A stretch of DNA of 64,000 bases from a virus. The stretch covers positions 64,001 through 128,000 of IMG/VR virus record IMGVR_UViG_3300028840_006907, one strand, 5' to 3'. Below, one piece after another: positions 2,341 to 55,001 of the stretch (position 1 is the stretch's first letter; every line of letters starts with the position of its first letter). The translations under genes were made by a program, and so were the position numbers. The notes beneath the pieces were generated by a model. It was not told the DNA's origin. It ran no database searches and saw nothing but the letters and a program-made list of their open reading frames with translations.

Positions 2341-5300
2341 ATGTACTCTATTGATGATTTTATTCAAACTGTTTTTTCATATACTCTTCAGAAACAGAAA
2401 TTCTTCGCAGCAGCAGAACGTGCTTTAAAGAAAAATCTCCAATCCTATATACGCCCCGACTTTTTCGGAACTAGTTCGGGAGATGTCCGACTAGATAATT
2501 TACTTGTATCTCTCGCCAATAGATTGGGTGAAGCTGATGTTGAAGATAAAAGAATTTTTCTTGAAGATGCAGTAAGTGATTTTGTCTCAGAAGAGAAGGC
2601 TGACGAGTTAAGAGCAATCCTTGAAACCAAATTGGAAAGAAAACATAAAATCCCTGAAGAACTAGCTGATAAATTTATCAGTAAATCAGGTTTACTTGTT
2701 GATGAAGAGAAAAAAGAATTTGATCGTGTGAAGAAAGATATGGTCAAATTGATCTCAGGTTTTATTTACGGTTTCTTCGAAAATAAATTTAAAGAATTTG
2801 TACGAGCAAAAAAGAAAAAAGAAGATATCGGTAGAGAAGTAGCCCCGGATCTAGAAGTCCTGCCTGATAGTGAATTAATTGATCAAGCTGAAAAAGAACA
2901 AGAATGGCAAGAAGGTTTAACTAAAGATCTGTTTGGATATATCAATAAAAATGTTCCGGAAAAAAGGCGCTATGCTTATAAAATGATCTTGTTAAAAAGA
3001 TTTATGGTAGCACCAGCTAGTAGGATGGGTTTTGTTGAAATGGCAGAAAAGACAGGAATACCCAAATCATCTCTGGAAGAATGGGAAAAAGATTTGGGCC
3101 GTAGACTTGCTGAATATCTCTCTGCAGGTGGCCTTGGCCCTAAATTCGTTAGTGAGGGTGGCCTTTATAAAAAAGATGTTAAAGTTCCCGATTATAAAGA
3201 TGTTTTTAAAAACAAAGAGAATTCGAATGATTTCAAAGATTTCATGGAAGGCAAACAACCAAAAACCGGTAAACCCATGAGTGAGAAGGTAAAAAAAATA
3301 TTAGAGTTGTTTGCTGAAGGTAAAGATACCAAGGAAATCGAATCACAGACTGATGCGAGTATTGGTCAGATAAAAAAATTAAAAAGTACTCATTTCTCTC
3401 CCTGGTATAAAGAGTGGTATGCTGAAATGCTTAAGGATGTCAGAGAAGCTACAGAACGTATAAAGAAAGCTCTTATGATAATTAATGGTGAGACACCTCC
3501 TCCAGCTTCTCATGAGAAATATGTGAATATGGCAATAGCTAAAAAATACCCTCTTGAACTTACTGTAACTTTTAGTGCCAATTATGATAACCAGGATTTA
3601 ATAAAGGAAAGTGATCGAGTTGATCCGGAAAAAGACCCGGTTGATTTTAAATACAAACATTACCAGGTAAAATTAGAAAGGACCAGTAGACCCCGAATTG
3701 AATATACTTTTGATCAAAAATTAACCGATAAAGGTGATTTTGAAGGTAGCCCTCGATCATCATTGGTCATTGAAGGAAATCCTGGTCATGAAGGTTTGAG
3801 AAGAAGGCTCGATGAATATGTCGAGCAAGAAATGAAACCAGAGGGTATCCTTCCTTACGGTCCTTCGGTAAAGGGTAGAAAACCTGTCCAGATCCCTGTT
3901 GAATATGTAAATGAATCTCTTGATAGTACTAAGACCTATGATGGGTCTAAAAAAAGAAGATATCGTGGATTTATTGATTTCGCTGACAAGTACAAAGGTT
4001 TCATGGTAAAAGACCAACCTCATTTAACCCGGGTTCAGGAAGAAAGTAAAAGGGAAGAGAAGAAATTGTTACCTAAGGGTGGAAAAAATGAAATTCGAAA
4101 ATTGATCCAGCATTTAAAAGAAAATATTGGTGATGAAATGGAAGAGACTACACCCGATAAGAAAAAAGTTGAGGTGTGGAAAAAACAGATTAAAGAATTA
4201 CAGGATCATTTGAAGAAAGATTCTGAAAAAGAAATAGTGGATTTTGTCTCAAAACATAAAGAGAGGTTTAAATTCGCTGTCTCTGAAGAGCGCATGAAAA
4301 ATGTTCGTGAATTGATGAAACTCAGAGAACTAGTAGAAAACCAAGAACAACGATTGTTACAAAGAAAAATGAAAGGTGATCCTAAAGATAAGGATACAGT
4401 TAAACTTAAAGAAGATATAGCAACAAATAAAGATAAAATCACTAAGCTCGAAAAAATCCTTGAAGAAACAAAAGAGCCATTTCCTCCACCAGAATCGGCT
4501 AAAGTTCAAAAGTTATTAAAGGAACTTTCTGATCTCGGTATTAAAGACAGAAAATTAGAAGAATTCCTGACTTCAACTGATCTCCAATTTTTTGTTAACC
4601 AGGTACAAGGTGCTCTGGCCAAGGAAGCACAAGATAATATCGCAGGTGTTAAGAAAAACAAAAATATGAGTGATGAGGAAAAGAAACAGGAATATGAAGC
4701 TATTGAGAGAAAACGTGGTGTAAAGCTGAATAAATTTATCGAGTTGTTTGAAGCTGTACCTGAAGACATGAAAAAACGTCTGGAGAAATATAAAAAGGCT
4801 GATCCCAGTGGGTATAAAAAATTAGAAAAGAAGCATGGGGCTCTTTTAAACTGGGTAAATAATCCTGAAAAAGCCCTCTCTAAAGTAAAACAGAATCTTT
4901 CTACACCGAAAACTCTTGAGGCTCCAAAAGGTAAACAGGAATCAGTGGTACCTATGGAGGAAGAGGATGCTAAATACATGCTCAATTGGCTTGAGGCCCA
5001 GTTACAGGGTTTCGATGTTATAGGAGAAAGATTTGGTCAGGCAGCTTTAAAAGCAGAAGGTTTAAGTCCACAAGAGAGAGTTAAGGTAGAAAAACAATTA
5101 AAAGATACAGAAAAAGAGTTTCAGGATTTACGAAATAGAATAGGTGAAATGGAAGGTAAAGGGAAGGCTACCACTAGTGAAATCAAAGATCTGAAAAAAG
5201 ACATACCGACTTATATGAGAACAATAGAAGGTTTAAAAAGTTCTCTTTCTGATTCAAAAGAATCTCCTGCTATGATTATGGCACAAGTTTTAACTGATCG

Positions 5301-6885
5301 ACTTTCTGATTTCACTAAAATGTACAATCCGTTATCAAAGACTTTATGGTTTAGCCCAAAAACCTATGAGAAGAGAGCAGAAATTGTTACCAGTGAAGAT
5401 GATCCAGCTTTAGCTTCATTGCAAAAGAACATTGCTAAGGATACAGTTTCATTTTCAAAACTCAGCATCTTCGATAAAGAATCCATTAGATCTCTGGCAA
5501 GTACCATCCGGTCAGGTTTATCAAAATTCAAAAAGGAGTTACCAAGAATGGCCTCTTTTAATCCAATCTATTTAACAGTAGAAGAAAAAGCCCTTATGGA
5601 TAAACAAGCTAAGGAAGAAGATCACTTTGAAAAACGTGTTAAATTTGTTTTTCCTGAAGGTGAATTGAATGATGCCAAAAATATGGTAACTCAGCTCAAA
5701 GAGAAGAAATTAGATGATGCATCGAAAAAAGCTCAGAAAGAATTATCAGAATTAATTAAAAATGTCACAAGTGCCTATGATGATTTCGATATAGGTAAAA
5801 TTAAAGCATTGGCAGAAAAAGAGGAGATTTCTGAATCAAAAGCTGCTGTTCGTTTAAAAAGAATAAAAGACTCATTGGCTAAATATGCTCTAAGTCAATT
5901 CATTCTTAAGTGGCAAGATGTCATAGACATGGGATTTAAAGATACTCCAAGAAAGAAAGGACCTTTGGGAGGACCGGAATCCCAAAAATATGATAAAATT
6001 TTGGAAATAATTGAAGAGGATGTACCTGAGTTATTTAAAGAGGCTCCTCCTGAGAAAGAAATAAAAGAAGCTCCTAAAGGCTTACCTACTCCTAAGGAAA
6101 TCAGAGAACGTATCGAAATGGAATTTGAAGAAGGATTTCCAGCACAAAAAGAAAGAGAATACAGAACTCTGAAGGACAAAGGTCATAAATTATTCAAAGA
6201 TCCTTCTGGGGCTGGTGGTGGCGGTGGCGGAAAAGGTAAAAGTCGCCCAAAACCTATAAAGAAACATCCTCCTGCCCATACATATGAAACACTTAAGAGT
6301 AATTTCAAAGAAGCTCTGAAAACAAAATCAGTTCATGACATAGTACTTAGTGAAATAGGCAGGTATTTACATAATGTGAGAAATTATGTGAAAGGTGGCT
6401 CTTATTTCGATGTGGATGATGTTGTTGCTGGAGTTGTCGATGTATTGAAAAATTTTAAAAAAGTCATCAAATCATTAAGAGTAACCATGGATCCAGGAGC
6501 TACTGCAGATATAAAACTGAAAGATGAAAAAGAGGCAAAACAACTTTTTAATAAATTATCAGATATTTACAAATTAATAGATATGATTGCTGCTGATGAA
6601 AGTGGGAAACCTGTTATAAAAATAGGTCCTATACCAGGTGATCTGAGTAAGATAAAAACTCAACGTGGTGAACCCGATACCTGGTTCCCGAAAGGTCTTA
6701 TGGAAGCTGTTCAAGTAAAAAAACGAGAAGAGATTGAAGAAGGAGCAAAAGAGAAAGCTCCTGAAAAGTCAGTTTCAGCAAAAAAAGTATCAGCACAATT
6801 TTTGGCTTTTAAATTAGCACATAAGTTTTCCTTTTCAGATTTACAAAAGATTGAAGGTCTGAAAGAAGATATAGATAAAAAATAA
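2341..6885 (+). CDS. large Lys/Glu-rich coiled-coil protein (1514 aa), possibly virion-associated
   Basis: Single uninterrupted 4.5-kb ORF, GGAAGGA RBS, low-complexity charged sequence with a Gly-rich stretch. Confidence 0.55.
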   Translation: MYSIDDFIQTVFSYTLQKQKFFAAAERALKKNLQSYIRPDFFGTSSGDVRLDNLLVSLANRLGEADVEDKRIFLEDAVSDFVSEEKADELRAILETKLERKHKIPEELADKFISKSGLLVDEEKKEFDRVKKDMVKLISGFIYGFFENKFKEFVRAKKKKEDIGREVAPDLEVLPDSELIDQAEKEQEWQEGLTKDLFGYINKNVPEKRRYAYKMILLKRFMVAPASRMGFVEMAEKTGIPKSSLEEWEKDLGRRLAEYLSAGGLGPKFVSEGGLYKKDVKVPDYKDVFKNKENSNDFKDFMEGKQPKTGKPMSEKVKKILELFAEGKDTKEIESQTDASIGQIKKLKSTHFSPWYKEWYAEMLKDVREATERIKKALMIINGETPPPASHEKYVNMAIAKKYPLELTVTFSANYDNQDLIKESDRVDPEKDPVDFKYKHYQVKLERTSRPRIEYTFDQKLTDKGDFEGSPRSSLVIEGNPGHEGLRRRLDEYVEQEMKPEGILPYGPSVKGRKPVQIPVEYVNESLDSTKTYDGSKKRRYRGFIDFADKYKGFMVKDQPHLTRVQEESKREEKKLLPKGGKNEIRKLIQHLKENIGDEMEETTPDKKKVEVWKKQIKELQDHLKKDSEKEIVDFVSKHKERFKFAVSEERMKNVRELMKLRELVENQEQRLLQRKMKGDPKDKDTVKLKEDIATNKDKITKLEKILEETKEPFPPPESAKVQKLLKELSDLGIKDRKLEEFLTSTDLQFFVNQVQGALAKEAQDNIAGVKKNKNMSDEEKKQEYEAIERKRGVKLNKFIELFEAVPEDMKKRLEKYKKADPSGYKKLEKKHGALLNWVNNPEKALSKVKQNLSTPKTLEAPKGKQESVVPMEEEDAKYMLNWLEAQLQGFDVIGERFGQAALKAEGLSPQERVKVEKQLKDTEKEFQDLRNRIGEMEGKGKATTSEIKDLKKDIPTYMRTIEGLKSSLSDSKESPAMIMAQVLTDRLSDFTKMYNPLSKTLWFSPKTYEKRAEIVTSEDDPALASLQKNIAKDTVSFSKLSIFDKESIRSLASTIRSGLSKFKKELPRMASFNPIYLTVEEKALMDKQAKEEDHFEKRVKFVFPEGELNDAKNMVTQLKEKKLDDASKKAQKELSELIKNVTSAYDDFDIGKIKALAEKEEISESKAAVRLKRIKDSLAKYALSQFILKWQDVIDMGFKDTPRKKGPLGGPESQKYDKILEIIEEDVPELFKEAPPEKEIKEAPKGLPTPKEIRERIEMEFEEGFPAQKEREYRTLKDKGHKLFKDPSGAGGGGGGKGKSRPKPIKKHPPAHTYETLKSNFKEALKTKSVHDIVLSEIGRYLHNVRNYVKGGSYFDVDDVVAGVVDVLKNFKKVIKSLRVTMDPGATADIKLKDEKEAKQLFNKLSDIYKLIDMIAADESGKPVIKIGPIPGDLSKIKTQRGEPDTWFPKGLMEAVQVKKREEIEEGAKEKAPEKSVSAKKVSAQFLAFKLAHKFSFSDLQKIEGLKEDIDKK

Positions 6886-6923: not shown

Positions 6924-7682
6924 TTGGAGACATCTGTGAAGTATAGCGTACTTGTACCCTACTATAAACGCCTAGGGCACCTACATAATACCTTTATTTC
7001 CTTTCTACACCATTATTCAGATAGAAATGATTATGAGGTTGTCATAGCAGAAGATTATAAAAATGTCCAGAATAAAAAAGACCATGACGGTCTATCAGAA
7101 ACCATTGAGAAATTCCGTGAAAAAATACCGATAATTCATTTAACTCTTTCTATGGAAACCTGGAATCCAGCTCATGGTTTTAATGAAGCTGCAAAGTGGG
7201 CTTCTGGTGAATATTTCGTTGTAACCAATCCAGAATGTTTCCATCAAGTGAACATACTGGCTGGACTCGATAAAGAATTTGAAGAAGACCCCAATGTCTA
7301 TGTTGTATGTGGTTGTATGAATTATGTCCGTTGTAATTTTTTTATTAAAAACTTTAATGATCTAAATGGAAAATTTCAGAGATGGTACCAACACTCAATA
7401 CATAGAGCAGCCCACTATCATTTCTGTTCAGCTATTTCAAAACAGAATTGGGTAAAAATAGGAGGATTCGATGAAGACTTTGCTATGGGTATAGCCTATG
7501 ATGATGTCGATTTTAAATTAAGCATTCAAAAAGCCAAGATACCCTTTCATATCCGGGATGACCTTCTTACTATACATATTGACCATGGTTCCTTCCCATC
7601 TCCTCCAAATGCTCAGAAATTAGTTAATCGAAATAGAATCACCTATCAAAGAAAATGGGAAGGAAGTAATGAATCTTACTAG
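6924..7682 (+). CDS. putative glycosyltransferase-like protein
   Basis: 252-aa ORF with non-ATG start (TTG 6924 or GTG 6936); weak GT-A-like features only. Confidence 0.35.
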   Translation: METSVKYSVLVPYYKRLGHLHNTFISFLHHYSDRNDYEVVIAEDYKNVQNKKDHDGLSETIEKFREKIPIIHLTLSMETWNPAHGFNEAAKWASGEYFVVTNPECFHQVNILAGLDKEFEEDPNVYVVCGCMNYVRCNFFIKNFNDLNGKFQRWYQHSIHRAAHYHFCSAISKQNWVKIGGFDEDFAMGIAYDDVDFKLSIQKAKIPFHIRDDLLTIHIDHGSFPSPPNAQKLVNRNRITYQRKWEGSNESY

Positions 7683-9762
7683 TTATACCGCAGCCGACAG
7701 TATCCCGATAAAATTGATTAAGAACTTTAAATTGTTAAAGTCCATGACAACAAAAGGAGTCATCTTACCAATCCATGTCCAGTTCATACCCACAAATAGA
7801 TGTAACATGAAATGTGGATTTTGTAGCTGTGCTGAAGATGACAGAAAAACAGAAATGTCCCTTAAAAATGCTAAGAAGATCATCAGAAAATTAAAAAAAC
7901 TCGGTACTCAATCCGTAACCATCACCGGAGGAGGAGAACCACTCCTTTATCCTCATCTCCAAGAATTGTTTTCTCTGTTTAAAGATGCCGGGATAAAAAT
8001 CGGTTTTGTTACCAATGGCCTCTTATTAGGTAAATGTACCTATGAAGATGTAACCTGGTGTCGGATTTCTAATTCTGATGAAAGAAAAATGGACATGGAC
8101 TATTATCACACAATAGCTTATGCTGTTGAAGATAACCCAAACGTGGACTGGGCCTTTAGTCATGTCGTTTCTCCAAAACCAAATATCTCCGAAATAAAAC
8201 GGATCATAGAATTTGCCAATCTCCATGATTTTACCCATGTCCGATTAGTAGCTGATCTATTGAATTATAAAGAAGTAGATTTAATGCAGTTAAAAATCAC
8301 TCTTCGAGATGAAAATGTCGATGATGATAAAGTCATCTATCAAAGTAGAAATACCCCGCTCAGAGGCGGAGACTGTTATATATGCTATCTTAAACCCATG
8401 ATAGGGGCTGACTGTAATGTGTACGCTTGTTGTTTAGAGGCTAATGAACCTGTATTAATCCAGAGAAATAACGAAAGGATGTATTTATCTATAAAGGATG
8501 TTGTTCCAGGGGATTATGCTTGTGAATATGGAAAGATTTTAAATGTGTTTCATAAAGAGGGTGAAGAAGGCTTGGAAATAGTTTTGCAAAATAATAGGAC
8601 TATTTATGTTTCGAAAGATCATCTTATGCTTAAATTGACAAACCCTGAAATTAGACATAAGAGAAAGAAGTTATTATCTGACTATGAATTAGATACAATA
8701 GAATCTTCTGAATTAAGAATTGGAGATTTACTTCCGGTCAAATATAAATATGATATTAGTGAAATAAAAGAAGATACTATATCTGAAGAAGAAGCAGAAT
8801 TAATAGGATATTATGTAGCTGAAGGTTGGTCCAATGAACGAACTTGTATAGTTGATAAAAAATATCCTACTAGAACTACCACTATAGGATTTATGCTAGG
8901 GAAAGAGTCAAGAGAATATATAAGAAGATTTGAAGAAATTTGTGATATTTTGAATCTAAATTTTTCTATGACTGAACGTAGAACTGGTATGCAGTATCAG
9001 ATAGGTGCACATAAACCCTACGATGACTTAATTGTACACTGTGGTAATAAAGCAGAATTAAAAAAGATCCCTCCTTTTATTTTAAACGGCTCTGATAAAA
9101 TAAAGTGGAAATTTATTCAAGGCTATTTTGGAGGTGACGGGAATTTTCAAACTCCTTCTAAAAGCTATGATGGTTTTAAAATGAGAATGAGTACTGTCAG
9201 TAGACAACTAGCTAATGATATAATTTATCTCTTTTGTACTTTAAATATTCATGCTTCTATGAGAGTTGAGAGACGTGAAGGAAAAATGATAATAGAAGGA
9301 AGAGAGGTAAATGCTAAAGATCGGTATCATATAAATATAGGGGGAGCCTATAATTTAGAAAAAGCCCCATTCCTAAATGTAATTCAAACAAAAGAAAGAA
9401 GTCCTAAAAGAGCCCTCGGTTTTTTGAAAGATGAGGATAAGGGCATTATGTTTGTACCAGTTAAAGAGATCAGAGAGAAAAAGTTAGGAAAATTAGTAGA
9501 CATTCAAGTGGAAGGTTCAAATAAATTTATATCTTCATTTGGTATAATAGTTCATAATTGTGGCGTCCAGTATGCTCTTAAAAAGCCTTCAAAGAATCTT
9601 CCTAAGAAACTGAGCCTAGGAAGTGCTTTTGATCTTGAGAAGATAATTGAGAACAGTAATAAGCCCCTGGACGGGAGCATGTGTTATCGATGCTATTATA
9701 GTAATTATAACAAGATACTAGGATCCATCCTGGATGATACCGATCATATGGAGTTTGTATGA
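7669..9762 (+). CDS. radical SAM protein interrupted by an intein
   Basis: CNMKCGFC (CxxxCxxC) Fe-S motif near N-terminus; about 376-aa insertion with intein hallmarks. Confidence 0.7.
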   Translation: MNLTSYTAADSIPIKLIKNFKLLKSMTTKGVILPIHVQFIPTNRCNMKCGFCSCAEDDRKTEMSLKNAKKIIRKLKKLGTQSVTITGGGEPLLYPHLQELFSLFKDAGIKIGFVTNGLLLGKCTYEDVTWCRISNSDERKMDMDYYHTIAYAVEDNPNVDWAFSHVVSPKPNISEIKRIIEFANLHDFTHVRLVADLLNYKEVDLMQLKITLRDENVDDDKVIYQSRNTPLRGGDCYICYLKPMIGADCNVYACCLEANEPVLIQRNNERMYLSIKDVVPGDYACEYGKILNVFHKEGEEGLEIVLQNNRTIYVSKDHLMLKLTNPEIRHKRKKLLSDYELDTIESSELRIGDLLPVKYKYDISEIKEDTISEEEAELIGYYVAEGWSNERTCIVDKKYPTRTTTIGFMLGKESREYIRRFEEICDILNLNFSMTERRTGMQYQIGAHKPYDDLIVHCGNKAELKKIPPFILNGSDKIKWKFIQGYFGGDGNFQTPSKSYDGFKMRMSTVSRQLANDIIYLFCTLNIHASMRVERREGKMIIEGREVNAKDRYHINIGGAYNLEKAPFLNVIQTKERSPKRALGFLKDEDKGIMFVPVKEIREKKLGKLVDIQVEGSNKFISSFGIIVHNCGVQYALKKPSKNLPKKLSLGSAFDLEKIIENSNKPLDGSMCYRCYYSNYNKILGSILDDTDHMEFV
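8431..9558 (+). mobile_element. intein with LAGLIDADG-type homing endonuclease domain
   Basis: Starts with Cys (CLEANEP), block-B-like SKDH, LAGLIDADG-like LIGYYVAEGW and FIQGYFGGDGNF, ends IIVHN followed by Cys. Confidence 0.6.
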
Positions 9763-12019: not shown

Positions 12020-15018
12020 AGGGAAACCCCGCTCAGATGCAGGGAAGAAGATTTCATTAAGAAGTTTTAGGAAGAGCCCCGCAGAGGAGGAACCTCGCAA
12101 GATGCGGGGAAAAGGAACTTCAGGCAATTGGCTGGGATTAGCCCCGCGAAGGTGCGGGGAAAACAGTTTCCATGAACTATATTAGGGAGAGCCCCGTTGA
12201 CACGGGGAAAAACCCGTCTTTACTTAGTGAGATCGAGGAAGGAACAGCCCCGTTGATACGGGGATAAAATAATATGACTTTTACGAATCCTCTAGGGACA
12301 GCCCTGCAGAGTGCAGGGAAAAGTAACGTCTGGGAATTGTTTAGGATTAGCCCCGCGAAGGTGCGGGGAAAGCCATAGATTTTATATTGACACAGGAAAA
12401 ACCCCGGTATAGTCCGGGGAAAAGTACGTAATCAAGATGTAAGAGGATTAGACCCGGCGAGTCCGGGAAAAGATTGGCCCAATCACTATTAAGTAGGGTG
12501 GGATAGCCCCGCAGAATGCAGGGAATAGATGCCTCACTTCATACCACTGCGTCAACCCCAGTAGAGTCCGGGGAACATGAGTGTAAATCTCTGTCGTAGG
12601 TTCAACCCCGGAGAGATCCAGGGGAAATGGGTACAACTTTGTGTACAAGGGGTAGCCCCGGAGAAATCCGAGGAAAATGAGTGTAAATCTGTGTTGAGGG
12701 TCCAGCCCCGCTCAGTGCAGGGAATATTAAGGGTCAAAACCGGTTGCCCCTGCGTCAACCCCGGTGAAGTCCGGGGAACATGAGTGTAAATCTCTGTGGT
12801 AGGATCAACCCCGCAGAGTGCAGGGAAAAATTGAACTTTTTAATCAACCCTGTAACAGCCCCGGAGTCAGTTTTGACAAGTCCGGGGGAATATCACTTCG
12901 TAAAGGAGTGGCTGTCAAGGGGGCAACCCCACAGAGATGTGGGGGAAAGTAAGCCAACGTTCCGGCATAGGCATAGCCCCTGAATTTACAGAGGGCAATT
13001 TTTCCAGTGTCCAGAAGAAGATGCAGGGAGAACCCCGGAAAGTCCAGGGGAAAATGTGTCACAGAACAACTCTTTGTGATCTCCAGGGTGAACCTCGCAG
13101 AGGTGCGGGGGAAAAGTGTCAATGAATACCAGTATGAGTCAGCCCCGGTATAGCCCGGGAATAATTACTTCTAGTCTGATAGAAGGTGCAACCCCGGGAA
13201 GTCCGGGGAAATCGGTCATAGCCATCTGGACCAGGAAGAACCCCGGTGAGATCCGGGGAAAAGGACGTTTAAATCCTGACATAGTAGCTAACTGAGGCGT
13301 AGCTCCGGTCGGGTCAGCCCTGCAGAGAGCAGGGAACAAACATAGGTAATAAATCGGCACGTGACAGCCCCGCAGAGAGGCGGGGATATATAGCGTGAGT
13401 TGCAGGGTAAGGTTCAACCCTTGTTTACCAAGGGAAAAATACCGGCAGATAAGAATTTAGGATGACCCCCGGTGAAAGTCCGGGGAAAATAATTAATACG
13501 CAAAACAGCAGGGCCAGTCCCGCGAGATGCAGGGAATGTTCAGCCAGTTTGTGTAATATTTCAGGAGACGGTGGTGCAACCCTGTCAAGGACAGGGATAT
13601 GCAACATCTGTGGCTCTACGAGGATCAGCCCCGGCAAGTCCGGGGAATTATCTTTTTATAAATGCCAAAAATAACAGTTGGGAGGGGCCAATTCCGCTGA
13701 TGCAGAAAGACATTTCATAATTAATATATTTATGGAAGAGCCCCGGTGAAATCCGGGGAAGTCAAGTAATTACAGCTCGCTGACCACTGGGGGTAGCCCC
13801 GGTAAGATCCGGGGAAAAGTTTGTTTTGAAACAAACGCTAGGAACAGCCCCGCTCAGGTGCGGGAGAATCACTGCATATTTGGTTAATGGCCCCCCTGAG
13901 TCAATCCCGCTCAGGTGCGGGGAAAATAAAGAGATAGACTAATTCAATATGCAGGAAGAACCCCGCTATATGCAGGAAAATTTAAAAAGTATGGATATCT
14001 CCTTGAGTCAACCCCGGAGATCCAGGGAAATGTAGGCACTCGTTGTCCTTTGTCGAAGTGTGAAGGGCAAACCTCGTTGATACGAGGAACAAATTTAGTT
14101 TTACTTTTGAATAAAAGTGGTCAAGCCCCGCTCAGGTGCAGGGAATAGATAAGTATACCGACGATAGCCAGGACAGCACCTGTGGTTTAGCCCTGCATGT
14201 GCAGGGAATAGTTGAGTTGAAGATTGAAGAAAAAGATAAAGTAGGGTCAGCTCTGCATGTGCAGAGAATAGCCTTTCTTCAAGCGTTGACTTGGGAGTAG
14301 GTGGGGATCAGCCCTGCACATGCAGGGAATAGAATGGTGAATCAAATTCCATTTTGTCAAAGAACGGCGACAGCCCTGCCAGTGCAGGGAATATGATTTT
14401 AACGATGGTAAAATTGGGAAGGGGTCAGCCCTGCACATGCAGGGAATAGTCGCTAGTTCAAATCCAATCGCCCCGACAGGATCAGCCCTGCATACGCAGG
14501 GAATAGAAAATACTGACGATAAACTAGCGATATGGGATCAGCCCTGCATACGCAGGGATATAGCTTGACGAATGGCCGTTTTAATGCCAGGAGTAACCCC
14601 GCTGCGAGGAATAGTCATTTCAAATATATAGGTAAAGCCCCGCGAAAGAGCGGGGGTATAATATGGCGGATTTTGTTCTATTGGTGGAATCCGGGCCATC
14701 CCCGTAGATTGACACGGGGAGATCTTTTAGAAATCTACCAAGGTGCCTTTCCGGAGTCATCCCCGTATATACGGGGGAGATTTCAATTCAGGGAATTTCG
14801 GTACAAAATTGGTCGGTTTATCCCCGTATACACGGGGAATATTGTTTCAATAGGGCATAGCAGATCTAGGATCGGGGAATCCCCGCAGGGGCGGGGAACA
14901 TCTCGGATTTATTAATCAAATTCAAACGTTTTTCGGGGAATCCCCGCAGGGGCGGGGAACATTGTTTTAAGAGGTGGTAGTTACCTCGTAGGGGAATCCC
15001 CGCAGGGGCGGGGAACAT
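12020..15018 (-). CRISPR. CRISPR array 1: about 55 hairpin repeat units, three identical leader-proximal repeats, progressively divergent distal repeats
   Basis: Leader-proximal repeat (minus strand) ATGTTCCCCGCCCCTGCGGGGATTCCCC at 14874-14901, 14935-14962, 14991-15018 with 33- and 28-nt spacers; periodic CCCCGC/GCGGGG-type hairpins back to about 12020. Confidence 0.8.
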
Positions 15019-17444: not shown

Positions 17445-17600
17445 TCAATCGTTTTTATCAATCTCCGTGGCTAATACCGACATAAATGACATTCCGGTTC
17501 CTCCTGGTAATTCAATAATAGAAGGTCTTTTGATGTTCTCTTCTAAATTCCTAGAAGCGAGTTGCCAAGAATAGGCTTTTATAGTTTTTGTATTATTCAT
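17445..17600 (-). CDS. micro-ORF (51 aa) between cas6e and helicase
   Basis: GGAGAT 8 nt upstream of ATG at 17600; no known motif. Confidence 0.25.
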   Translation of the reverse strand: MNNTKTIKAYSWQLASRNLEENIKRPSIIELPGGTGMSFMSVLATEIDKND

Positions 17601-17628: not shown

Positions 17629-18273
17629 TTAATAAGATTTATACGGTGCAATAAGCATCATACCACATCCGAAACCTTTACTCTTACCAATTCCATTATA
17701 AATAGTATTCACAAAAAGATTTTTATTGACTACCTGAAGGACTCCTCGTAAATCAATACTGAAAAAAGATACAACTTTACCATCTTTTTTTTTGAATTTA
17801 CAGAATTGAAAAGATTGAACGGAATGCTTTTGAATCATATTTTTAAAACCGTAACTTTGGCCACGTTTCTGAAGCCAATTCTTTGAGGATTCGTGAGCAA
17901 TGAAATTCCAATTATAGGGTTCATCAAGAACTTTCATTTCATTTGCCAGATCCGTCATGATTGAAACCTTTTTCCTGGTTTTCAATTTACAAACTTCGGC
18001 ATTGAGTCTGAGATCGTATTGAAGAAATATTCCAGATTTTAAATTATTTAAATCGAATACTTTTGTTTGTGTAGTGTATTCGTCCTCTGGAGGATTTGGT
18101 TTCTTTTTTGATATGATATAAAGTTCACCATTATAGAGATAATAAAGGAAATCTCTTACCCTGTTAGATCTTTGATCACCAAAAAATTCCCAGACTTTTT
18201 GATGAAGCTCATATATACCTTCGGTGGGAGAATATCTTCTCAAGCTGTCACTGTAAATTTTACTCAGAAACAT
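17629..18273 (-). CDS. cas6e: Cas6e (CasE) endoribonuclease
   Basis: Start set at internal Met (GGAGG RBS); MFLSKIY N-terminus and C-terminal GIGKSKGFGCGMM resemble E. coli CasE. Confidence 0.75.
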   Translation of the reverse strand: MFLSKIYSDSLRRYSPTEGIYELHQKVWEFFGDQRSNRVRDFLYYLYNGELYIISKKKPNPPEDEYTTQTKVFDLNNLKSGIFLQYDLRLNAEVCKLKTRKKVSIMTDLANEMKVLDEPYNWNFIAHESSKNWLQKRGQSYGFKNMIQKHSVQSFQFCKFKKKDGKVVSFFSIDLRGVLQVVNKNLFVNTIYNGIGKSKGFGCGMMLIAPYKSY

Positions 18274-18910
18274 TCGATACCTCCTTCCATCCCATATACT
18301 CAATTCGGGATCGGTATTGTTTGGGACCGGTTACCTGATCAAAACGTTGATTGCTTTTTACTATTTTGATACTGGTATCGGTACCTTCCCAAAATATTCG
18401 GTTCTTTTCACGCCCTTTAAGACTACCATTAAGAAATTCAGGAAGAGAGTACTGTTCAAACGCCTCTGAGAGGCTCTCAGCCTTAACGATCTTAGGATCG
18501 GGTGGTATGTCATAGGAACAGCATTTCCTTCCAAGAAAGGGGGTATAGATGGGCCTATTAAGGGCTTCCATTATTTTCTTCAAAGTATAGGGACAGTTTT
18601 CATTCTCCCATATACATACGGTAAAGATGGCATTGACTAGGTAAAATCTATTCGAGACAATTCCTGGTCCGACTCTGACAATATGGAAATCTTTTAGAAT
18701 AGTACCAGGATTATCTTCCCTACAGGCAAATCCTAGTTGGGCAATCTGAGTTAATTCTTTCACCATTTCTCTTGAGACTCCAAGAGAAGCAGCGATTAAC
18801 CCGCTTACGCCAGATTTGGTAGGGTGATCATCTGTCTTTCGGGTATTACCCTGAAGGGGGAGACCCCAGGCGGATAGAGTACCCGAAAGAAGGAATAATA
18901 AATAATTCAT
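18260..18910 (-). CDS. cas5e: Cas5e (CasD)
   Basis: MNYLLFLLSGTLSAWG and YTPFLGRK resemble E. coli CasD MRSYLILRLAGPMQAWG and YTPYLGRR. Confidence 0.8.
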   Translation of the reverse strand: MNYLLFLLSGTLSAWGLPLQGNTRKTDDHPTKSGVSGLIAASLGVSREMVKELTQIAQLGFACREDNPGTILKDFHIVRVGPGIVSNRFYLVNAIFTVCIWENENCPYTLKKIMEALNRPIYTPFLGRKCCSYDIPPDPKIVKAESLSEAFEQYSLPEFLNGSLKGREKNRIFWEGTDTSIKIVKSNQRFDQVTGPKQYRSRIEYMGWKEVSNVSE

Positions 18911-20019: not shown

Positions 20020-20045
20020 AAATACTCCTTGATATTTATTATTTA

Positions 20046-21989
20046 TTATATGTTATTTGAATATTCTCTTTCCCAGTAGAACTTGACATCTTTGCTCCAG
20101 TGGGCATACCCTTCCATGAAACTGATGATGTTAAATCCTTCCATTCGAGAAACAACATCAGCAAATACTTTCCAGTTTTTTTGTATATCCGTTTTATTGA
20201 AACTCATCATTTCGTCAACATGTCGGCGGTTAATTTTTTGAGAACCCATTTGGGCACCGAAAGATTGAGAAAAATCCAGATCCTTAGCTTTAAAAACAAT
20301 TAGTAGAAGAGGTACGAAAAGAGTCTTCATATCTTCTGATCTTAAAGCAGGGAAATGCATAGACATTTCTAAAATAAAATTCAAATAAAGGTCTTCATGT
20401 TTTAAGATATCGATGTCAAAACATCGGGTAAATACCCTATGTTTTTCTGTATTTCTAATAGTCCCGTACCAGGACAGGAATGGTTTGGTAAAGACCTGGT
20501 TAAAATGAGGTAGGTTTAATTTCCTGTATTCGATATGGGCGAAATTCTCATATTCTAATGGTTGTAGTTTAAGAGGTTTAACAACTTTTTTATTTAAGGT
20601 TTCGATAAATTGTTCCTTAAAATATTTCTGTAAACCTCTCTTTTCAGTACCTACATTTTTTTCAAATGTATCGAAAGCTTTAACTACCATCTTTTCCAAC
20701 CATTTTTCGATATTATGATTCTTGAGAACTTCATAGAAGTATTCTTCAGTTTCTGTCAGAAATTCGTGAAATATTAAAGGTTCGGTTTTATCAGTTCCCC
20801 AGAACTTTCTTATATAATTACAGGTATACCATCCTATAAGATATGAGTGTTCTCTGATATTTAAAGTAAACGCACTATCTTTATAGAGTTCTTCTGGGAT
20901 ATCGAATTTATTTTCCTCCCATCCAAAGAGTTTGGCTTTAGCCATATTATAACCGAAAGTCCATAATCCGAAATCAGTTATTCCAAGATATTCTCGGTTC
21001 TCCATGAAATGACTCACCACTAAAGCTGGAGTTAATTTTTTAGCTGGTAGTAGATAGGTCACAAGATCGAGATGGCTGGTAAAGTCCAGGGGTTTCCGGA
21101 AACCTGTTTCTTTGCCTTTTATAATGGGTGAAAGGATATGACGTGGTTTGACATAACAGTTACCATAATTCCTCGTTTTTATCTTTCTAACCATTAATTT
21201 GGAATGATTGCCACAGATAGTACATGATTCATCAAATTTATCAAAGATAAGATGAATACGTAGAGGCATTTCCCAGAGCGGGTAATAAGGATTCATCTCA
21301 TCCAGGGAAACAGTAGCTTTGTTTTTACTATCAACGGTATCACTAAGCCATGGGAGTGTTACACCTTTTGGATTTCCTCCGAATTCAAACATGGTCTTTT
21401 TAATAATAACATTAGACCATATTGTTTCCCATAACGTGGAACCGGTAATAATAGTGGTAAGAGAACCATTGGCACCGGCTGTTATCGAAGTACGGTATCC
21501 TTGGCCTCCCATAATGGCACTGAGTTGATTAAGATAAAGGGCAATTGTAGCACAGGATTGGCAAAAAGTATGTATCTTTGCTTTTTGGAAGAAATCTTTA
21601 CCAGCTTTAATTGTCGCTGTCCCTGGAGTATCAAAGAGGAGATTACCAACATTTACGATTCTTTCAAGGTCCTGTGGCCGTTTATCCTGTAAAAAACGAG
21701 GACCTTTGCCATCTAGTTCAAAGAGTTTTGGTTTAAGTTTTTCTAGGATGGCTTTTTGGTTTGGTGCTTTTTTGAATAGTTTTTTCCATTCTTTCTTACT
21801 TGTAGGAGCAAGATAAGTGTTGAAAAAACCTATGAGAAGCCGTACACCTACAGCATTGAAATCGGGTCTACCGAAATCGAGAGCTATTATAGGGTTATTA
21901 GGTTTTGAAGTTATTTTGTAGGGTGGAATGTTTTCCCTGGTACCGTCTTTTCGGATGACGGGGATCCAAGGGTCCTTAATTACATTCAT
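20046..21989 (-). CDS. cas8e: Cas8e (Cse1) large subunit with about 145-aa C-terminal extension
   Basis: MNVIKDPWIPV and CQSCATIALY match Cse1 DNWIPV and CGGCTAIALF; GGAGGT RBS. Confidence 0.8.
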   Translation of the reverse strand: MNVIKDPWIPVIRKDGTRENIPPYKITSKPNNPIIALDFGRPDFNAVGVRLLIGFFNTYLAPTSKKEWKKLFKKAPNQKAILEKLKPKLFELDGKGPRFLQDKRPQDLERIVNVGNLLFDTPGTATIKAGKDFFQKAKIHTFCQSCATIALYLNQLSAIMGGQGYRTSITAGANGSLTTIITGSTLWETIWSNVIIKKTMFEFGGNPKGVTLPWLSDTVDSKNKATVSLDEMNPYYPLWEMPLRIHLIFDKFDESCTICGNHSKLMVRKIKTRNYGNCYVKPRHILSPIIKGKETGFRKPLDFTSHLDLVTYLLPAKKLTPALVVSHFMENREYLGITDFGLWTFGYNMAKAKLFGWEENKFDIPEELYKDSAFTLNIREHSYLIGWYTCNYIRKFWGTDKTEPLIFHEFLTETEEYFYEVLKNHNIEKWLEKMVVKAFDTFEKNVGTEKRGLQKYFKEQFIETLNKKVVKPLKLQPLEYENFAHIEYRKLNLPHFNQVFTKPFLSWYGTIRNTEKHRVFTRCFDIDILKHEDLYLNFILEMSMHFPALRSEDMKTLFVPLLLIVFKAKDLDFSQSFGAQMGSQKINRRHVDEMMSFNKTDIQKNWKVFADVVSRMEGFNIISFMEGYAHWSKDVKFYWEREYSNNI

Positions 21990-22210: not shown

Positions 22211-22236
22211 ATTTCCTCCGTTTACACGGAGGAAAT
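22211..22236. other. perfect 10-bp palindromic hairpin between array 2 and cas8e
   Basis: ATTTCCTCCG TTTACA CGGAGGAAAT. Confidence 0.35.
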
Positions 22237-22264: not shown

Positions 22265-22586
22265 GACAGCCCCGGTAAAGTCCAGGGAAATAAAAATTAG
22301 TGATAATTCGGGAATCAGCAGGAGGAGAGCATCAGCCCTGCGTATGCGGGGAATAGTGTTATCGTCTTACAGGATGTAAAGCAGAGACAGCCCCGCGTAT
22401 GCGGGGAATAGAAATTAATACATCTCATAAAATCTAGCATCAGCCCCGCGTATGCGGGGAATAGTTATTTATCTATACTTCCTACAACTCCCATAACGCA
22501 TCAGCCCCGCGTATGCGGGGAATAGCTCGTTGGTTTTCCCATTCCACAAAAGTTCAACGCATCAGCCCCGCGTATGCGGGGAATAG
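22265..22586 (-). CRISPR. CRISPR array 2: five 28-bp repeats plus a degenerate terminal repeat, four spacers
   Basis: Repeat (minus strand) CTATTCCCCGCATACGCGGGGCTGATGC at 22329, 22384, 22437, 22498, 22559; spacers 27, 25, 33, 33 nt. Confidence 0.85.
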
Positions 22587-34425: not shown

Positions 34426-34502
34426 TGGTACCCCAATCAGGACTCTAACCTGAAATCTTTGGCTCCGGAAACCAACGCTTTATACAATTAAGCTATTGGG
34501 GC
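34426..34502 (-). tRNA. tRNA-Arg (anticodon CCG), CCA encoded
   Basis: Hand-folded cloverleaf: GCCCCAA/TTGGGGT acceptor, loop TTCCGGA, atypical T-loop. Confidence 0.5.
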
Positions 34503-34511
34503 ATTATAAGA

Positions 34512-34586
34512 TGGCGGTGCGTAAGGGAATCGAACCCTTGCCAGGAGATCGACAGTCTCCGGTCCTAACCACTGAACGAACGCACC
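34512..34586 (-). tRNA. tRNA-Asp (anticodon GTC), CCA encoded
   Basis: GGTGCGT/ACGCACC acceptor, loop CTGTCGA, T-arm GGTTCGATTCC. Confidence 0.7.
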
Positions 34587-34595
34587 GTATTTTTA

Positions 34596-34760
34596 TTAAT
34601 CAATTTTTTTATTTCCGATAAAAAGACCGCAGTCGCATTGCCGAGCCATTTTCGTTTTATTCTTTATTACAATGCCTATTGCTTTAATAGGCTTTTTACA
34701 AGTGTTGCAAATATTTTGCTGTGTCTTTTTGTCATGCTGTTTCACTGCTGTTTTAGCCAT
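34596..34760 (-). CDS. micro zinc-ribbon protein (54 aa)
   Basis: Hand-translated MAKTAVKQHDKK...CNTCKK...CDCG; AAGGAG RBS. Confidence 0.35.
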   Translation of the reverse strand: MAKTAVKQHDKKTQQNICNTCKKPIKAIGIVIKNKTKMARQCDCGLFIGNKKID

Positions 34761-34782
34761 TACTTGTACTCCTTAAATGTTA

Positions 34783-34856
34783 TGGCAGGGACGGTCAGAT
34801 TCGAACTGACATCGCCGGTTTTGGAGACCGGGTGCTTGACCGTTAGCGACGCCCCT
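34783..34856 (-). tRNA. tRNA-Trp (anticodon CCA), CCA encoded
   Basis: Loop CTCCAAA, T-arm GTCAG TTCGAAT CTGAC. Confidence 0.65.
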
Positions 34857-34871
34857 GTATTGACAAATTTT

Positions 34872-35045
34872 TCATGATTTGAACCATTCACTACAACCTT
34901 CGGCTAGTTCTAATAAATGAACACAAGGTTTTGTTTCTTTTGCCAGAACACAGCCACACACTGTACAAATTACCACAGCAGGTTTCAAATCATGTTTCTC
35001 AATTTCAGCGAATGCTTTCACTATATCATTCACTATATCATTCAT
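34872..35045 (-). CDS. micro Cys-rich protein (57 aa)
   Basis: Hand-translated MNDIVNDIVKAF...CTVCGC... Confidence 0.3.
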   Translation of the reverse strand: MNDIVNDIVKAFAEIEKHDLKPAVVICTVCGCVLAKETKPCVHLLELAEGCSEWFKS

Positions 35046-35062
35046 TTTTTCTCCGAATTATC

Positions 35063-35135
35063 TGGGCGCAGACGGACTTGAACCGCCCACGAATGGCTTA
35101 TGAGACCACTACTCTACCGACTGAGTTATACGCCC
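35063..35135 (-). tRNA. tRNA-Met (anticodon CAT)
   Basis: GGGCGTA acceptor, loop CTCATAA, T-loop TTCAAGT; no CCA. Confidence 0.65.
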
Positions 35136-35143
35136 TTGACTTA

Positions 35144-35221
35144 TGGCACACCCGGCACGATTTGAACGTGCGACTTCTTCGTTCGTGGCGAAGATCTCTA
35201 TCCGGACTGAGTTACGGGTGC
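35144..35221 (-). tRNA. tRNA-Arg (anticodon ACG), CCA encoded
   Basis: Loop CCACGAA, T-arm CACG TTCAAAT CGTG. Confidence 0.6.
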
Positions 35222-35227
35222 GTATTT

Positions 35228-35728
35228 TTATAAAAAAGTTTTATACGTTTTTTTATTAATGATATATGATAATGTTGATTTTGCTGATTTATATTCCTTT
35301 GCTAATTTATTTAAACTTTCTCCATTTTTATTTCTGTTAATTATAGATTCTATCTCTTTTTTTGTGAATTTTCTTAATTTATACGCAGCTTTAACTGCTT
35401 GCTCTTTTCTTTCTTTTTCAGGTATATCAAATGAATTCTCTGATCTTGTACCAATTGATATATTAGAATCATTGAAATTTAATCTATTTCTATCTAAGTG
35501 TCTAGTCTCAATCCCTTCTTCAAAAACTTTATCCCCAAATAAAAAGTATGCTTTTAATTTATGTACTTTTAAATTTTTAATCTTTTTGTTTACATAGATA
35601 TTTATGGTAGGGTAACCTTTTGAATAATGGAATCTTAAAGGTTTTCCCATTGGCCCAATAACTTCATTTTTATCATTAAAATGATATCCTTTTTTTACAG
35701 CTATTTTTAAGACATCATTATTTTTCAT
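35228..35728 (-). CDS. HNH-family homing endonuclease
   Basis: Phage HNH-like GYHFNDKNEVIGPMGKPLRFH block and C-terminal helix-turn-helix; sits inside the tRNA cluster. Confidence 0.5.
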   Translation of the reverse strand: MKNNDVLKIAVKKGYHFNDKNEVIGPMGKPLRFHYSKGYPTINIYVNKKIKNLKVHKLKAYFLFGDKVFEEGIETRHLDRNRLNFNDSNISIGTRSENSFDIPEKERKEQAVKAAYKLRKFTKKEIESIINRNKNGESLNKLAKEYKSAKSTLSYIINKKTYKTFL

Positions 35729-35748
35729 ATATTAATTTTTCTTTCTAA

Positions 35749-35821
35749 TAGGGGTACGGGGAGTCGAACCCCGGTCGTGGGAGAGAAAATCCCATATCCT
35801 AAGCCATTAGAAGATACCCCC
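35749..35821 (-). tRNA. tRNA, anticodon probably TTC (Glu), atypical position 37
   Basis: GGGGGTA acceptor, T-arm CGGGG TTCGACT CCCCG, loop TTTTCTC. Confidence 0.5.
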
Positions 35822-35866
35822 ATAAAATAAAAAAGCTCCTGTCTGGTTCTCACCCGACAGGAGCTT
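35822..35866 (-). terminator. rho-independent terminator-like hairpin
   Basis: 10-bp stem AGCTCCTGTC/GACAGGAGCT followed on the minus strand by TTTTTTATTTT. Confidence 0.55.
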
Positions 35867-47872: not shown

Positions 47873-48282
47873 TGGAGGTGAGGAGAGTTGAACTCCTGTC
47901 CGCGAAGGTATCTTGAGTAAACCTCTACATGTTTAGTCTATGGTTTAAATCTTATTCATAATCACGTTCACAGACAAACTTAATTAAGAACCAGTCTCTA
48001 GTCTCATTCATTGGTCAAGACTCCTCAATGAACCAGAACCCGTTTGGCTATCCGGAATTAACAGGGTTCAGTTAAAACCGGATTTGTCGTTTTTTGTTTA
48101 AACGACGGCTTCTTCTGCTTGATGAATAGCAGCAAGGTTAAGTGCTGAAAACATCGCACAGAAGTTAACTGTATTAGTTTTTTCAGTTATTATTGAAATC
48201 GGCTTTTTTACGAGGCCAACCGATTAACCTCGACATGCAGTTTACATTTCAACTCATCACGTCGAAAACCAAGTACACCCCC
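47873..48282 (-). ncRNA. ssrA: tmRNA (SsrA)
   Basis: Minus strand starts GGGGGUGUACUUGGUUUUCGACG, has GCAUGUCGAGG...GGUUGGCCUCGUAAAAAAGCCG, ends GGACAGGAGUUCAACUCUCCUCACCUCCA; 620-bp ORF-free gap. Confidence 0.65.
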
Positions 48283-53794: not shown

Positions 53795-53868
53795 GCCGGA
53801 ATAGCTCAGTTGGCCAGAGCGGTTGATTTGTAATCAATTCGTCGGGGGTTCGAATCCCTCTTTCGGCT
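53795..53868 (+). tRNA. tRNA-Thr (anticodon TGT)
   Basis: GCCGGAA/TTTCGGC acceptor, loop TTTGTAA, T-arm GGGGG TTCGAAT CCCTC. Confidence 0.65.
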
Positions 53869-53934
53869 TGTAAATTTATTTGGAAAGGAGATGACATGAT
53901 GGCGAAAGTGTGATACTTAAACAAAGGAGCCGTT

Positions 53935-54234
53935 ATGTCTCATCCGAAAAACAAAAGAGAACGTTTTCTTATTGGGAAACGTAAAGGGGAAAAACGTTCT
54001 TATTTGTATTGGAGTGGTTATTCCAATTGGTTTGACCTTCCAGATTATTTCTATAAGAAAAGCCCTCGTAATAAGGGTGTTGAGTATGAGGAGAAAAAGA
54101 GATTACTCGAAAAGAGTAAAGCAATAAGAAGGGATACAACAAAGTTATGCTCTTGTCCTCAGTGTGGAAATCCGCGCAGACATTTTAAAGAGCGTACTTT
54201 ACAAGAAAAAAGATATTTTACTGCGGGGGGCTAG
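53935..54234 (+). CDS. basic zinc-finger protein
   Basis: 99 aa, CSCPQCG motif; 3' end overlaps next tRNA. Confidence 0.45.
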   Translation: MSHPKNKRERFLIGKRKGEKRSYLYWSGYSNWFDLPDYFYKKSPRNKGVEYEEKKRLLEKSKAIRRDTTKLCSCPQCGNPRRHFKERTLQEKRYFTAGG

Positions 54235-54294
54235 GCCTGGTGGTCTGGCAGGTCTCATAAGCCTGCAACTCAAGTTCAATTCTTGGCCCCGCAA
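54222..54294 (+). tRNA. tRNA with CAT anticodon (Met or Ile2)
   Basis: TGCGGGG/CCCCGCA acceptor, loop CTCATAA, T-loop TTCAATT. Confidence 0.5.
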
Positions 54295-54314
54295 ATGCAT
54301 ATAAAGGGGAAATA

Positions 54315-54683
54315 ATGGGAATGGATATACATGAGTGTTTTGAATATAAATTAAAATCATTTAATGAAATGGTTGCAAAGATCAATGAGAAACCGAAAGA
54401 AGATGAAGAGATCGATCTTGATAAACCTTATATCAGTCAATGGGATCATTTTGAGAGCTTCTTGAGGGAATTAATCTCTGATGATCACAGTCGGTTTAAA
54501 AGTGCTATTTTATGGCTTTTCTTTGCTGATGAAGAATTAGAGTTGCATGAAAAGATGAAAAACTTGTTTAACATATTAACAGATTTTGACGATAAACAAT
54601 TGATCTCTATGGTTTATGATTCGGGTTGTGATCGAGTGAAAGTTGATTTTGATAAATCGGAAAGTATAATTCATATGGAATAA
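54315..54683 (+). CDS. hypothetical acidic protein
   Basis: 122-aa ORF. Confidence 0.45.
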   Translation: MGMDIHECFEYKLKSFNEMVAKINEKPKEDEEIDLDKPYISQWDHFESFLRELISDDHSRFKSAILWLFFADEELELHEKMKNLFNILTDFDDKQLISMVYDSGCDRVKVDFDKSESIIHME

Positions 54684-54689
54684 AAATGG

Positions 54690-54765
54690 GGGCCGGAATG
54701 TTCCAAGGGGGCGAGAATGCCTTGCAAGCAATCTGCGGTGAGTTCGATTCTCACTCGGTCCACCA
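54690..54765 (+). tRNA. tRNA-Ala (anticodon TGC), CCA encoded
   Basis: G3-U70 wobble in acceptor stem, loop CTTGCAA, T-arm GTGAG TTCGATT CTCAC. Confidence 0.6.
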
Positions 54766-54919
54766 TAAGTAAAATAACAAAATCTTTCAAAAGGAAGTAG
54801 GCTTAAGAGTAGCCACTTTAATGAGTGATGAAAGGCGATGTGCACACGAATTTCGTGGAGTAGTTATCCGAATAGTCTTTGGTGTAACAACACACCTTTT
54901 GAAAGATTATTAATATAAT

Positions 54920-54994: not shown

Positions 54995-55001
54995 AATTTA
55001 T

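Follow-up and report, generated by a model that had tools for sequence, protein, structure and literature searches.

The large-subunit gene cas8e of a type I-E-like CRISPR (short palindromic repeats, clustered and regularly interspaced) operon in IMG/VR virus record IMGVR_UViG_3300028840_006907 appears to encode a fusion of two Cascade subunits. We analysed positions 64,001 to 128,000 of this record (64,000 nucleotides, hereafter the window, with positions counted from its first letter). Here, a single open reading frame (ORF; 20046-21989, minus strand, 647 residues plus stop) comprises a Cas8e (Cse1) part, a linker and, at the C-terminus, a diverged domain of the small subunit Cas11 (Cse2). 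An initial annotation, made from the sequence alone, had raised such a fusion as a possibility, having noticed that the 647-residue Cas8e stops 26 bp before cas7e, that no cas11 gene is present, and that the protein is about 145 residues longer than canonical Cse1. These observations were confirmed. The gap between the cas8e stop and the cas7e start at 20019 covers 20020-20045 (26 nt), with no cas11 in between. The estimate of about 145 residues holds against Escherichia coli CasA, which has 502 residues; against the canonical Cse1 P0011, the alignment leaves 173 extra residues.

Cse1 models matched the protein significantly (PF09481, E 4.6e-48, 164.9 bits versus a cut-off of 24.7; TIGR02547, E 1.6e-33, 116.4 bits versus 70.05; PADLOC Cas8e, E 3.9e-55), and PF09481 and TIGR02547 span just residues 2-375 of the 647. 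P0011 is a 539-residue Cse1 from a textbook I-E locus (L008) with cas3, cse1, a separate cse2 of 175 codons, cas7, cas5, cas6, cas1 and cas2. By BLASTP, its residues 1-526 align to residues 1-474 of the window protein. An AlphaFold2 (AF2) model contains four long helices at 372-397, 404-424, 427-446 and 451-470, and the predicted local distance difference test score (pLDDT) of this block is mostly about 70-88. This first full-length model was built from a shallow alignment of six sequences and had pLDDT <50 in its N-terminal half, and was used for the C-terminal half only. Because P0011 ends at residue 474 and the predicted helices occupy 372-470, the extra residues lie after a complete Cse1. 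According to alignment and model, then, the whole canonical large subunit, its own four-helix bundle included, fits in residues 1-473. The extension is accordingly distinct from the canonical Cse1 bundle, with which it might have been identical: the bundle is assigned to residues 348-473, and a Cas11 fold is predicted beyond it. Over the linker that follows, the full model has a reduced pLDDT of about 61-65, and the domain model one of 52-75. A Cas11-like extension had been suspected at residues about 500-647; the domain was found there, and its start was moved to near residue 493, after a linker of about 20 residues.

The Cse2 homology of this region becomes visible only when profiles are searched exhaustively or set against other profiles, and when folds are compared. 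Neither the window protein nor its C-terminal 174 residues gave a match to the Pfam Cse2 model PF09485, even at E up to 10, and no Cse2 came up when HMMER was used to compare the whole protein and the C-terminal profile directly with PDB sequences and Pfam. We built the C-terminal profile (residues 474-647) from six long homologues and used it in an exhaustive search of 1.84 billion representative proteins, which returned 16 proteins. The matches included nine long Cas8e-like proteins (602-664 residues), together with the 447-residue P0119, whose Pfam match begins only at Cse1 profile position 174 and which is probably cut at its N-terminus, and one 55-residue fragment. They also included six stand-alone proteins of 169-189 residues, matched over nearly their whole length. 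All six are Cse2 by Pfam (PF09485, E 5.6e-13 to 3.2e-19, above the gathering cut-off), and one fused relative, P0116, passes the Cse2 gathering score itself (25.1 versus 24.6 bits). When the alignment of the fused domains was compared with that of the six stand-alone Cse2 by hhalign, the probability was 99.0% (E 6e-18) over 154 columns, approximately the full Cse2 length. In the reverse test, a hidden Markov model (HMM) of stand-alone Cse2 only was run without filters on the 373 six-frame ORFs of >=50 residues in the window. It matched the Cas8e ORF at residues 497-636 (E 1.6e-6), and the next ORF had E 0.46. Hence, the 64-kb window holds no separate cas11 that this model could find among the 373 ORFs, in keeping with what had been read from the gene order.

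The comparison with Cse2 folds that the initial annotation had suggested pointed the same way. The AF2 model of the domain reached a pLDDT of 92.3, and its top 20 Foldseek matches were all Cse2, so that the predicted structure has the all-helical Cse2 fold. The full-length model gave the same Cse2 matches, and it is free of Cse2-sequence bias because it was built from fused proteins only. Taken together, profile and predicted fold identify residues about 493-647 as a Cse2/Cas11 domain, and the proposal of a Cas8e-Cas11 fusion is supported for these C-terminal 155 or so residues.

Conserved Arg residues of Cse2 are assumed to contact nucleic acid. Five Arg columns are conserved in the six stand-alone Cse2; in the window domain, only R522 remains of these, and the other four positions are H517, T521, H590 and D611. 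Relatives down to 26-27% identity retain W507, W631 and W639, the hydrophobic positions, the frame and the length. Evolution is faster in the C-terminal part than elsewhere in the protein, with identities of 44, 45, 38, 26 and 13% versus 57, 56, 53, 37 and 27% for the whole protein, and truncated forms among the relatives were seen at contig ends only. The idea that the small subunit had been dispensed with is therefore rejected, since the domain is still there and has been conserved.

Conservation and age of the fusion

Uninterrupted fused homologues of 642-664 residues, at 26-57% identity, were found in many independent divergent contigs, and the long homologues at 57, 56, 53, 37 and 27% identity each form a single uninterrupted frame. 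This recurrence argues that the ORF is not an assembly artefact. The fused cas8e-cas7e-cas5e-cas6e block is kept in five related loci (L003, L004, L005, L010 and L014; 26-53% Cas8e identity). Four of these (L003, L004, L010 and L014) have a helicase of about 740 residues directly after cas6e and lack cas11, cas3, cas1 and cas2. L005 has a CRISPR array after cas6e, followed by an ORF that extends to the end of the contig. Across the databases scanned (GenBank phages, IMG/VR, GTDB and metagenomes), the relatives sit on a few metagenome contigs only; a megablast of the operon against GenBank phages returned nothing, and no relatives were found in IMG/VR viral contigs or GTDB species genomes. Since the Cas11 domain is too diverged for the Pfam Cse2 model and has one of five Arg columns left, the fusion is judged to be old; as far as sequence comparison goes, it is also conserved and fixed across the clade.

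Directly upstream of the fused cas8e, L003 (8891-9967) and L010 (601-1674) carry a gene for a TrmB/IclR-like winged-helix protein of about 357 residues, which may regulate the operon in this branch. The window has a small array at this place and no counterpart of the protein.

A second Cse1-Cse2 fusion was found in P0082 (674 residues; locus L007, 8001-14411, on a GC-rich metagenome contig). As in the window, the gene for a long Cas8e carrying Cse2 at its C-terminus precedes cas7e, cas5e and cas6e, and cas3, cas1 and cas2 are absent from the vicinity. Its Cse2 part, however, is canonical-like and detectable by Pfam: it matches the stand-alone Cse2 profile at 97%, keeps the Arg motifs and has no match to the profile of the window clade. 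Furthermore, a two-repeat array follows cas6e in L007, and then, where the window clade has its helicase, a 519-residue protein without Pfam match; IS605/TnpB-type genes flank the locus. A comparison of the 519-residue protein with the helicase found no relation. The P0082 fusion is probably independent and younger, and Cse1-Cse2 fusion has probably arisen more than once. The coordinates of L008 show the cse1 stop overlapping the cse2 start; with such an overlap in canonical operons, a small change would be enough for fusion.

The operon, its helicase and its arrays

The fusion gene opens a five-gene operon on the minus strand, in the order cas8e-cas11, cas7e, cas5e, cas6e and a superfamily 2 (SF2) helicase gene (Table 1). 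Cas7e, Cas5e and Cas6e all gave significant matches beside cas8e (PF09344; PF09704 and TIGR01868; PF08798 and TIGR01907). Cas7e scored 155.9 bits, below the curated TIGR01869 cut-off of 178.05 and above that of Pfam. No HNH domain was found in Cas5e, whose 216 residues are matched over their full length by Cas5 models with no extra domain. Cas1 and Cas2 had no Pfam match in the 22-kb gene table around the operon or in the larger ORFs scanned, a scan that covered small ORFs outside the operon locus (L001) in part. A 51-residue ORF (17445-17600, minus strand) lies between cas6e and the helicase gene and is called in both contigs with the identical operon. It was rejected as a small subunit, being too small and not called in the relatives.

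Table 1 Features of the fusion gene, its operon and surroundings (window positions unless a locus is named).
Feature	Position	Strand	Evidence or remark
cas8e-cas11 fusion gene	20046..21989	-	ORF; Pfam, NCBIfam and PADLOC call Cas8e/Cse1 on residues 1-380
Cas8e N-terminal globular domain, residues 1-347	20949..21989	-	Cse1 profiles, residues 2-375; BLASTP to canonical Cse1 P0011
Canonical Cse1 C-terminal four-helix bundle, residues 348-473	20571..20948	-	P0011 alignment; AF2 helices
Linker, residues 474-492 (~20 residues)	20514..20570	-	past the canonical Cse1 end, before the first column shared with stand-alone Cse2
Cas11/Cse2 domain, residues 493-647 (start approximate, ~155 residues)	20049..20513	-	
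cas7e, 361 residues	18934..20019	-	PF09344 E 1.1e-52; TIGR01869 E 2.4e-45
cas5e, 216 residues, no HNH insertion	18260..18910	-	TIGR01868 E 1.7e-35; PF09704 E 1e-26
cas6e, 224 residues from a TTG start (214 in the JGI call)	17629..18303	-	TIGR01907 E 3.9e-34; PF08798 E 5.9e-32
SF2 helicase in place of Cas3, 743 residues	15128..17359	-	GGVGKT (Walker A) and DECHH motifs; ResIII and DEAD matched weakly
CRISPR array upstream of cas8e	22326..22586	-	5 repeats of 29 nt
Long array, ~52 diverged Cas6e-type hairpin repeats	12027..15014	-	downstream of the helicase gene
Helicase homologues	L003 14589-16826; L010 6247-8514; L014 5412-7616		after cas6e in full loci of the clade
Transfer RNA and transfer-messenger RNA clusters	34426-35822, 47873-48282, 53795-55328, 60768-63431		

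The 743-residue helicase stands where Cas3 would be expected. No HD nuclease was recognised in it, and its C-terminal 350 or so residues have no recognised domain. The cas3_core model gave E 0.023 and 13.8 bits versus a cut-off of 102, hhalign against real Cas3 gave a probability of 8.5%, and a profile of the helicase family searched against PDB returned generic SF2 helicases only, with likeness to Cas3 and to XPB/RIG-I-like proteins. These three results give no support to the protein being Cas3. Only 8 clusters of this rare family were found among 5.8 billion proteins.

Two arrays flank the operon, both in its orientation. The upstream array has five near-identical repeats with an I-E-like 29-nt sequence (CTATTCCCCGCATACGCGGGGCTGATGCG) and spacers of 32, 32, 24 and 26 nt. 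Between this array and the cas8e promoter region, there are two decayed repeat-like hairpins (22270-22287 and 22214-22233). In the downstream array, nearly every repeat copy differs, and the stems stay paired by compensatory changes (CCCCGC/GCGGGG, CCCCGG/CCGGGG, CCCTGC/GCAGGG, CCCCGT/ACGGGG and CCTCGT/ACGAGG), a divergence that is unusual for a CRISPR array. Its GC content is about 50% versus roughly 34% in the flanks, and some units are tandem duplicates (an 85-nt family, 85% identity). The periods are about 50, 56 and 61 nt, and the units fall into classes of 48-51 nt (20 units), 54-58 nt (12) and 59-65 nt (12). For repeats of 29 nt, the three classes imply spacers of about 20, 26 and 32 nt, that is, steps of one Cas7. 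The arrays of the relatives are uniform, with a strict 61-nt period (32-nt spacers).

Several independent metagenome contigs, 388-470 kb long, encode an identical Cas8e protein. Around the operon, most ORFs are short and without known function, and some match phage protein families. The window also contains 21 transfer RNA genes in several clusters and one transfer-messenger RNA gene; no structural phage genes were identified in this analysis. A contig of 388-470 kb that is rich in such genes fits a huge phage, and the source element is probably one. Elsewhere in the window, a 1514-residue ORF (2341-6885, plus strand) had no match in PHROG, and a 697-residue radical-SAM or anaerobic ribonucleotide-reductase-like protein (7669-9762) is encoded after it.

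Possible assembly and competing explanations

We consider it likely that a covalent Cas8e-linker-Cas11 fusion, a Cascade with one Cas11 and recruitment of the helicase together explain these data. The fusion would most likely have arisen when neighbouring cse1 and cse2 genes lost the stop/start junction that separated them. Cascade would assemble on CRISPR RNA (crRNA) processed by Cas6e, from Cas5e, a Cas7e backbone and one Cas8e-Cas11 polypeptide. Its minor ('belly') filament would then consist of the four-helix bundle and one tethered Cas11, in a fixed 1:1 ratio, rather than of the bundle and two free Cse2. On 32-nt spacers, there would presumably be six Cas7, with the second Cse2 position empty. 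An empty position is plausible because loss of Cas11 is tolerated for silencing and plasmid interference in the E. coli I-E system (PMC12235044). In Cas5-HNH Cascade, removal of Cas11 merely lowers activity (PMC10910872), and the copy number of Cse2 tracks crRNA length, with (Cse2)1(Cas7)4 on a 20-nt spacer (PMC5159557). From the sequence, we infer that the one-Cas11 stoichiometry is probable. After R-loop formation, the complex would probably recruit the helicase of about 740 residues that replaces Cas3. The outcome would be interference or silencing without an HD nuclease, for which degradation by host nucleases, protein displacement or repression are options.

A more specific proposal is tentative, and we hold it to be possible rather than probable: the system would be a hitherto undescribed I-E variant carried by a huge phage, with a single tethered Cas11 and a non-Cas3 SF2 helicase, without nuclease or adaptation genes, performing type IV-A-like interference or silencing with crRNAs of about 20/26/32-nt spacers from the array of about 52 units, whose diverged repeats covary. 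A shorter Cascade on short spacers was also considered as the family-wide reason for one Cas11 and was rejected, as the arrays of the relatives are strictly 61-nt; for the downstream array of this phage itself, a short-spacer Cascade is possible.

Several points weigh against a one-Cas11 Cascade that works with the helicase. A canonical I-E complex on a 32-nt spacer has two Cse2, so that one tethered copy leaves the minor filament partly unfilled. The search for cas11 covered 64 kb of a 388-470 kb contig, and a free cas11 elsewhere on it or in the host is possible. With four of the five conserved Arg lost, any role that the domain has in contacting nucleic acid may have changed. The link between helicase and Cascade comes from gene neighbourhood only. 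In some relatives, furthermore, a Met follows a Shine-Dalgarno (SD)-like motif near the domain boundary: L003 M481 and L010 M485 ('MELPLL') lie 12-13 nt past AAGGAA or AAGGAG (AAGGAG in L010), and L014 M480 follows GGAGG.

These Met codons bear on the explanation that the fusion gene also yields free Cas11 by internal in-frame translation, the fused copy nucleating the filament and free copies completing it. Such translation is documented for large-subunit genes without a separate cas11 (McBride et al., bioRxiv 10.1101/2020.04.18.045682; PMC11899642), as in types I-B, I-C and I-D, where translation of Cas11 begins at an internal Met that is conserved and has a ribosome-binding site (McBride et al.), and a 32-nt spacer would normally demand two Cas11. 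The initial annotation had listed internal initiation among its options, and the window gene gave it no support. No ATG, GTG or TTG occurs in codons 435-535, with the domain starting near codon 493, and no GGAG/GAGG-type SD motif precedes any start-type codon. The closest start codons are M434, in the four-helix bundle and with a weak SD (-3.4 kcal/mol), and L536, within the Cas11 domain. The candidate sites in the relatives are at unconserved positions and have a long SD spacing. Internal initiation is thus unlikely in the window gene and may occur in some other family members; as an account of how the complex is completed, we regard it as unlikely overall. It is also quite unlikely that the second position is filled by free Cas11 provided in trans, whether by a gene elsewhere on the 388-470 kb element or by a host I-E system. 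The extent of the search would leave room for it, the I-E-like repeats make a host I-E system conceivable, and huge phages have been proposed to borrow host Cas proteins (PMC7162821). Nevertheless, the window holds no Cse2-like ORF besides the fused domain, the fused, cas11-less architecture is kept in all related loci examined, and canonical Cse2 is only a distant match for the fused domain.

Replacement of four of five Arg, a domain to which Pfam is blind and the faster evolution of the C-terminal part might instead be taken as signs of a decaying remnant, a structural appendage whose small-subunit function has in effect been dispensed with. That E. coli and Cas5-HNH systems can do without Cas11 for certain activities (PMC12235044, PMC10910872) would agree with this. 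We think it very unlikely, given that frame, length, core Trp and hydrophobic positions are kept to 26-27% identity, that AF2 gives the domain a pLDDT of 92, and that truncated forms occur only at contig ends. Finally, the failure of direct Pfam and PDB sequence searches to find Cse2 in the window protein could suggest an enlarged Cse1 helical bundle, or an ORF in which a frameshift or misassembly has joined two genes. Both are extremely improbable: canonical Cse1, bundle included, ends at residue 474 and the rest matches Cse2 by profile and fold, and the ORF is found without interruption in many contigs that are independent and divergent.

Relation to known CRISPR systems

Canonical I-E Cascade, as in E. 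coli and Thermobifida fusca, contains one Cse1, two Cse2, six Cas7, one Cas5 and one Cas6e, and works with Cas3. The window system shares with it the Cas8e, Cas7e, Cas5e and Cas6e families, the order cas8-(cas11)-cas7-cas5-cas6, the Cse2 fold and 29-nt hairpin repeats, as well as the 61-nt array period in its relatives. It differs in that Cse2 is covalently attached to Cas8e, whereas canonical systems have a separate gene that gives two copies. Furthermore, most Cse2 Arg residues are lost, the Cas3 HD-helicase, Cas1 and Cas2 are missing, and an unrelated SF2 helicase follows cas6e.

As in types I-B, I-C and I-D (McBride et al. 2020), a small-subunit domain lies at the 3' end of the large-subunit gene and no separate cas11 exists. 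In those types, however, a conserved internal Met with a ribosome-binding site yields several free Cas11 copies, and the window gene has neither at the boundary. Moreover, Cas11 was added here after a complete Cas8e four-helix bundle, while theirs is the C-terminus itself. The I-F1 Csy complex likewise has no free small subunit, and its short minor filament is made from Cas8f alone, by the helical bundle at the Cas8f C-terminus, with no Cas11 (McBride et al., 10.1101/2020.04.18.045682). It lacks a Cse2-homologous domain, is built from other Cas8, Cas7 and Cas5 families, and uses Cas2/3.

Cas8-Cas11 fusions have been mentioned briefly for HNH-Cascade variants (Altae-Tran 2023). The I-E2 Cas5-HNH Cascade (PMC10910872) is also derived from I-E, lacks cas3, has an occasional cas8-cas11 fusion, and is partly independent of Cas11. 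The window system differs in having no HNH, in having a helicase rather than a nuclease as the extra component, and in a fusion that appears ancient and fixed in its clade. In the part of the 2025 classification that was covered, the I-E variants include I-E2 (Cas5-HNH), I-E3 (nuclease fused to Cas11) and I-E5 (transposon-associated), and no I-E variant with a Cas8e-Cas11 fusion and a non-Cas3 helicase is described there. A text search of the literature, with the 2022 Cell survey of phage CRISPR systems outside its scope, found no study dedicated to Cas8e-Cas11 fusion. The arrangement is rare; as the Cas8-Cas11 fusion itself has already been mentioned, the window system represents a variant on it. 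The huge-phage I-C variant described by Al-Shayeb et al. 2020, which has a helicase for Cas3 and no Cas1/Cas2 (PMC7162821), is similar in its huge phage-like carrier, in the absence of an adaptation module and in its use of a different helicase for Cas3. That variant has Cas5d and no Cas6, whereas the window system is I-E-like with Cas6e and a fused Cas8e-Cas11, and the two helicases are likened by role.

What looked like the loss of a gene is resolved by our analyses: the small subunit is there, as a diverged domain that escapes the standard models for Cas annotation. The clade offers a natural experiment on how many Cas11 copies Cascade needs and on the role of the minor filament, questions addressed so far in engineered E. 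coli complexes only, as evolution appears to have fixed one Cas11 per Cas8e while the relatives keep 32-nt spacers. For compact type I tools, a five-gene Cascade system of defined stoichiometry that needs one gene less could be of use. The fusion and the conserved non-Cas3 helicase together suggest an I-E derivative, carried by a phage, that may act on its targets by binding or remodelling and not by shredding.

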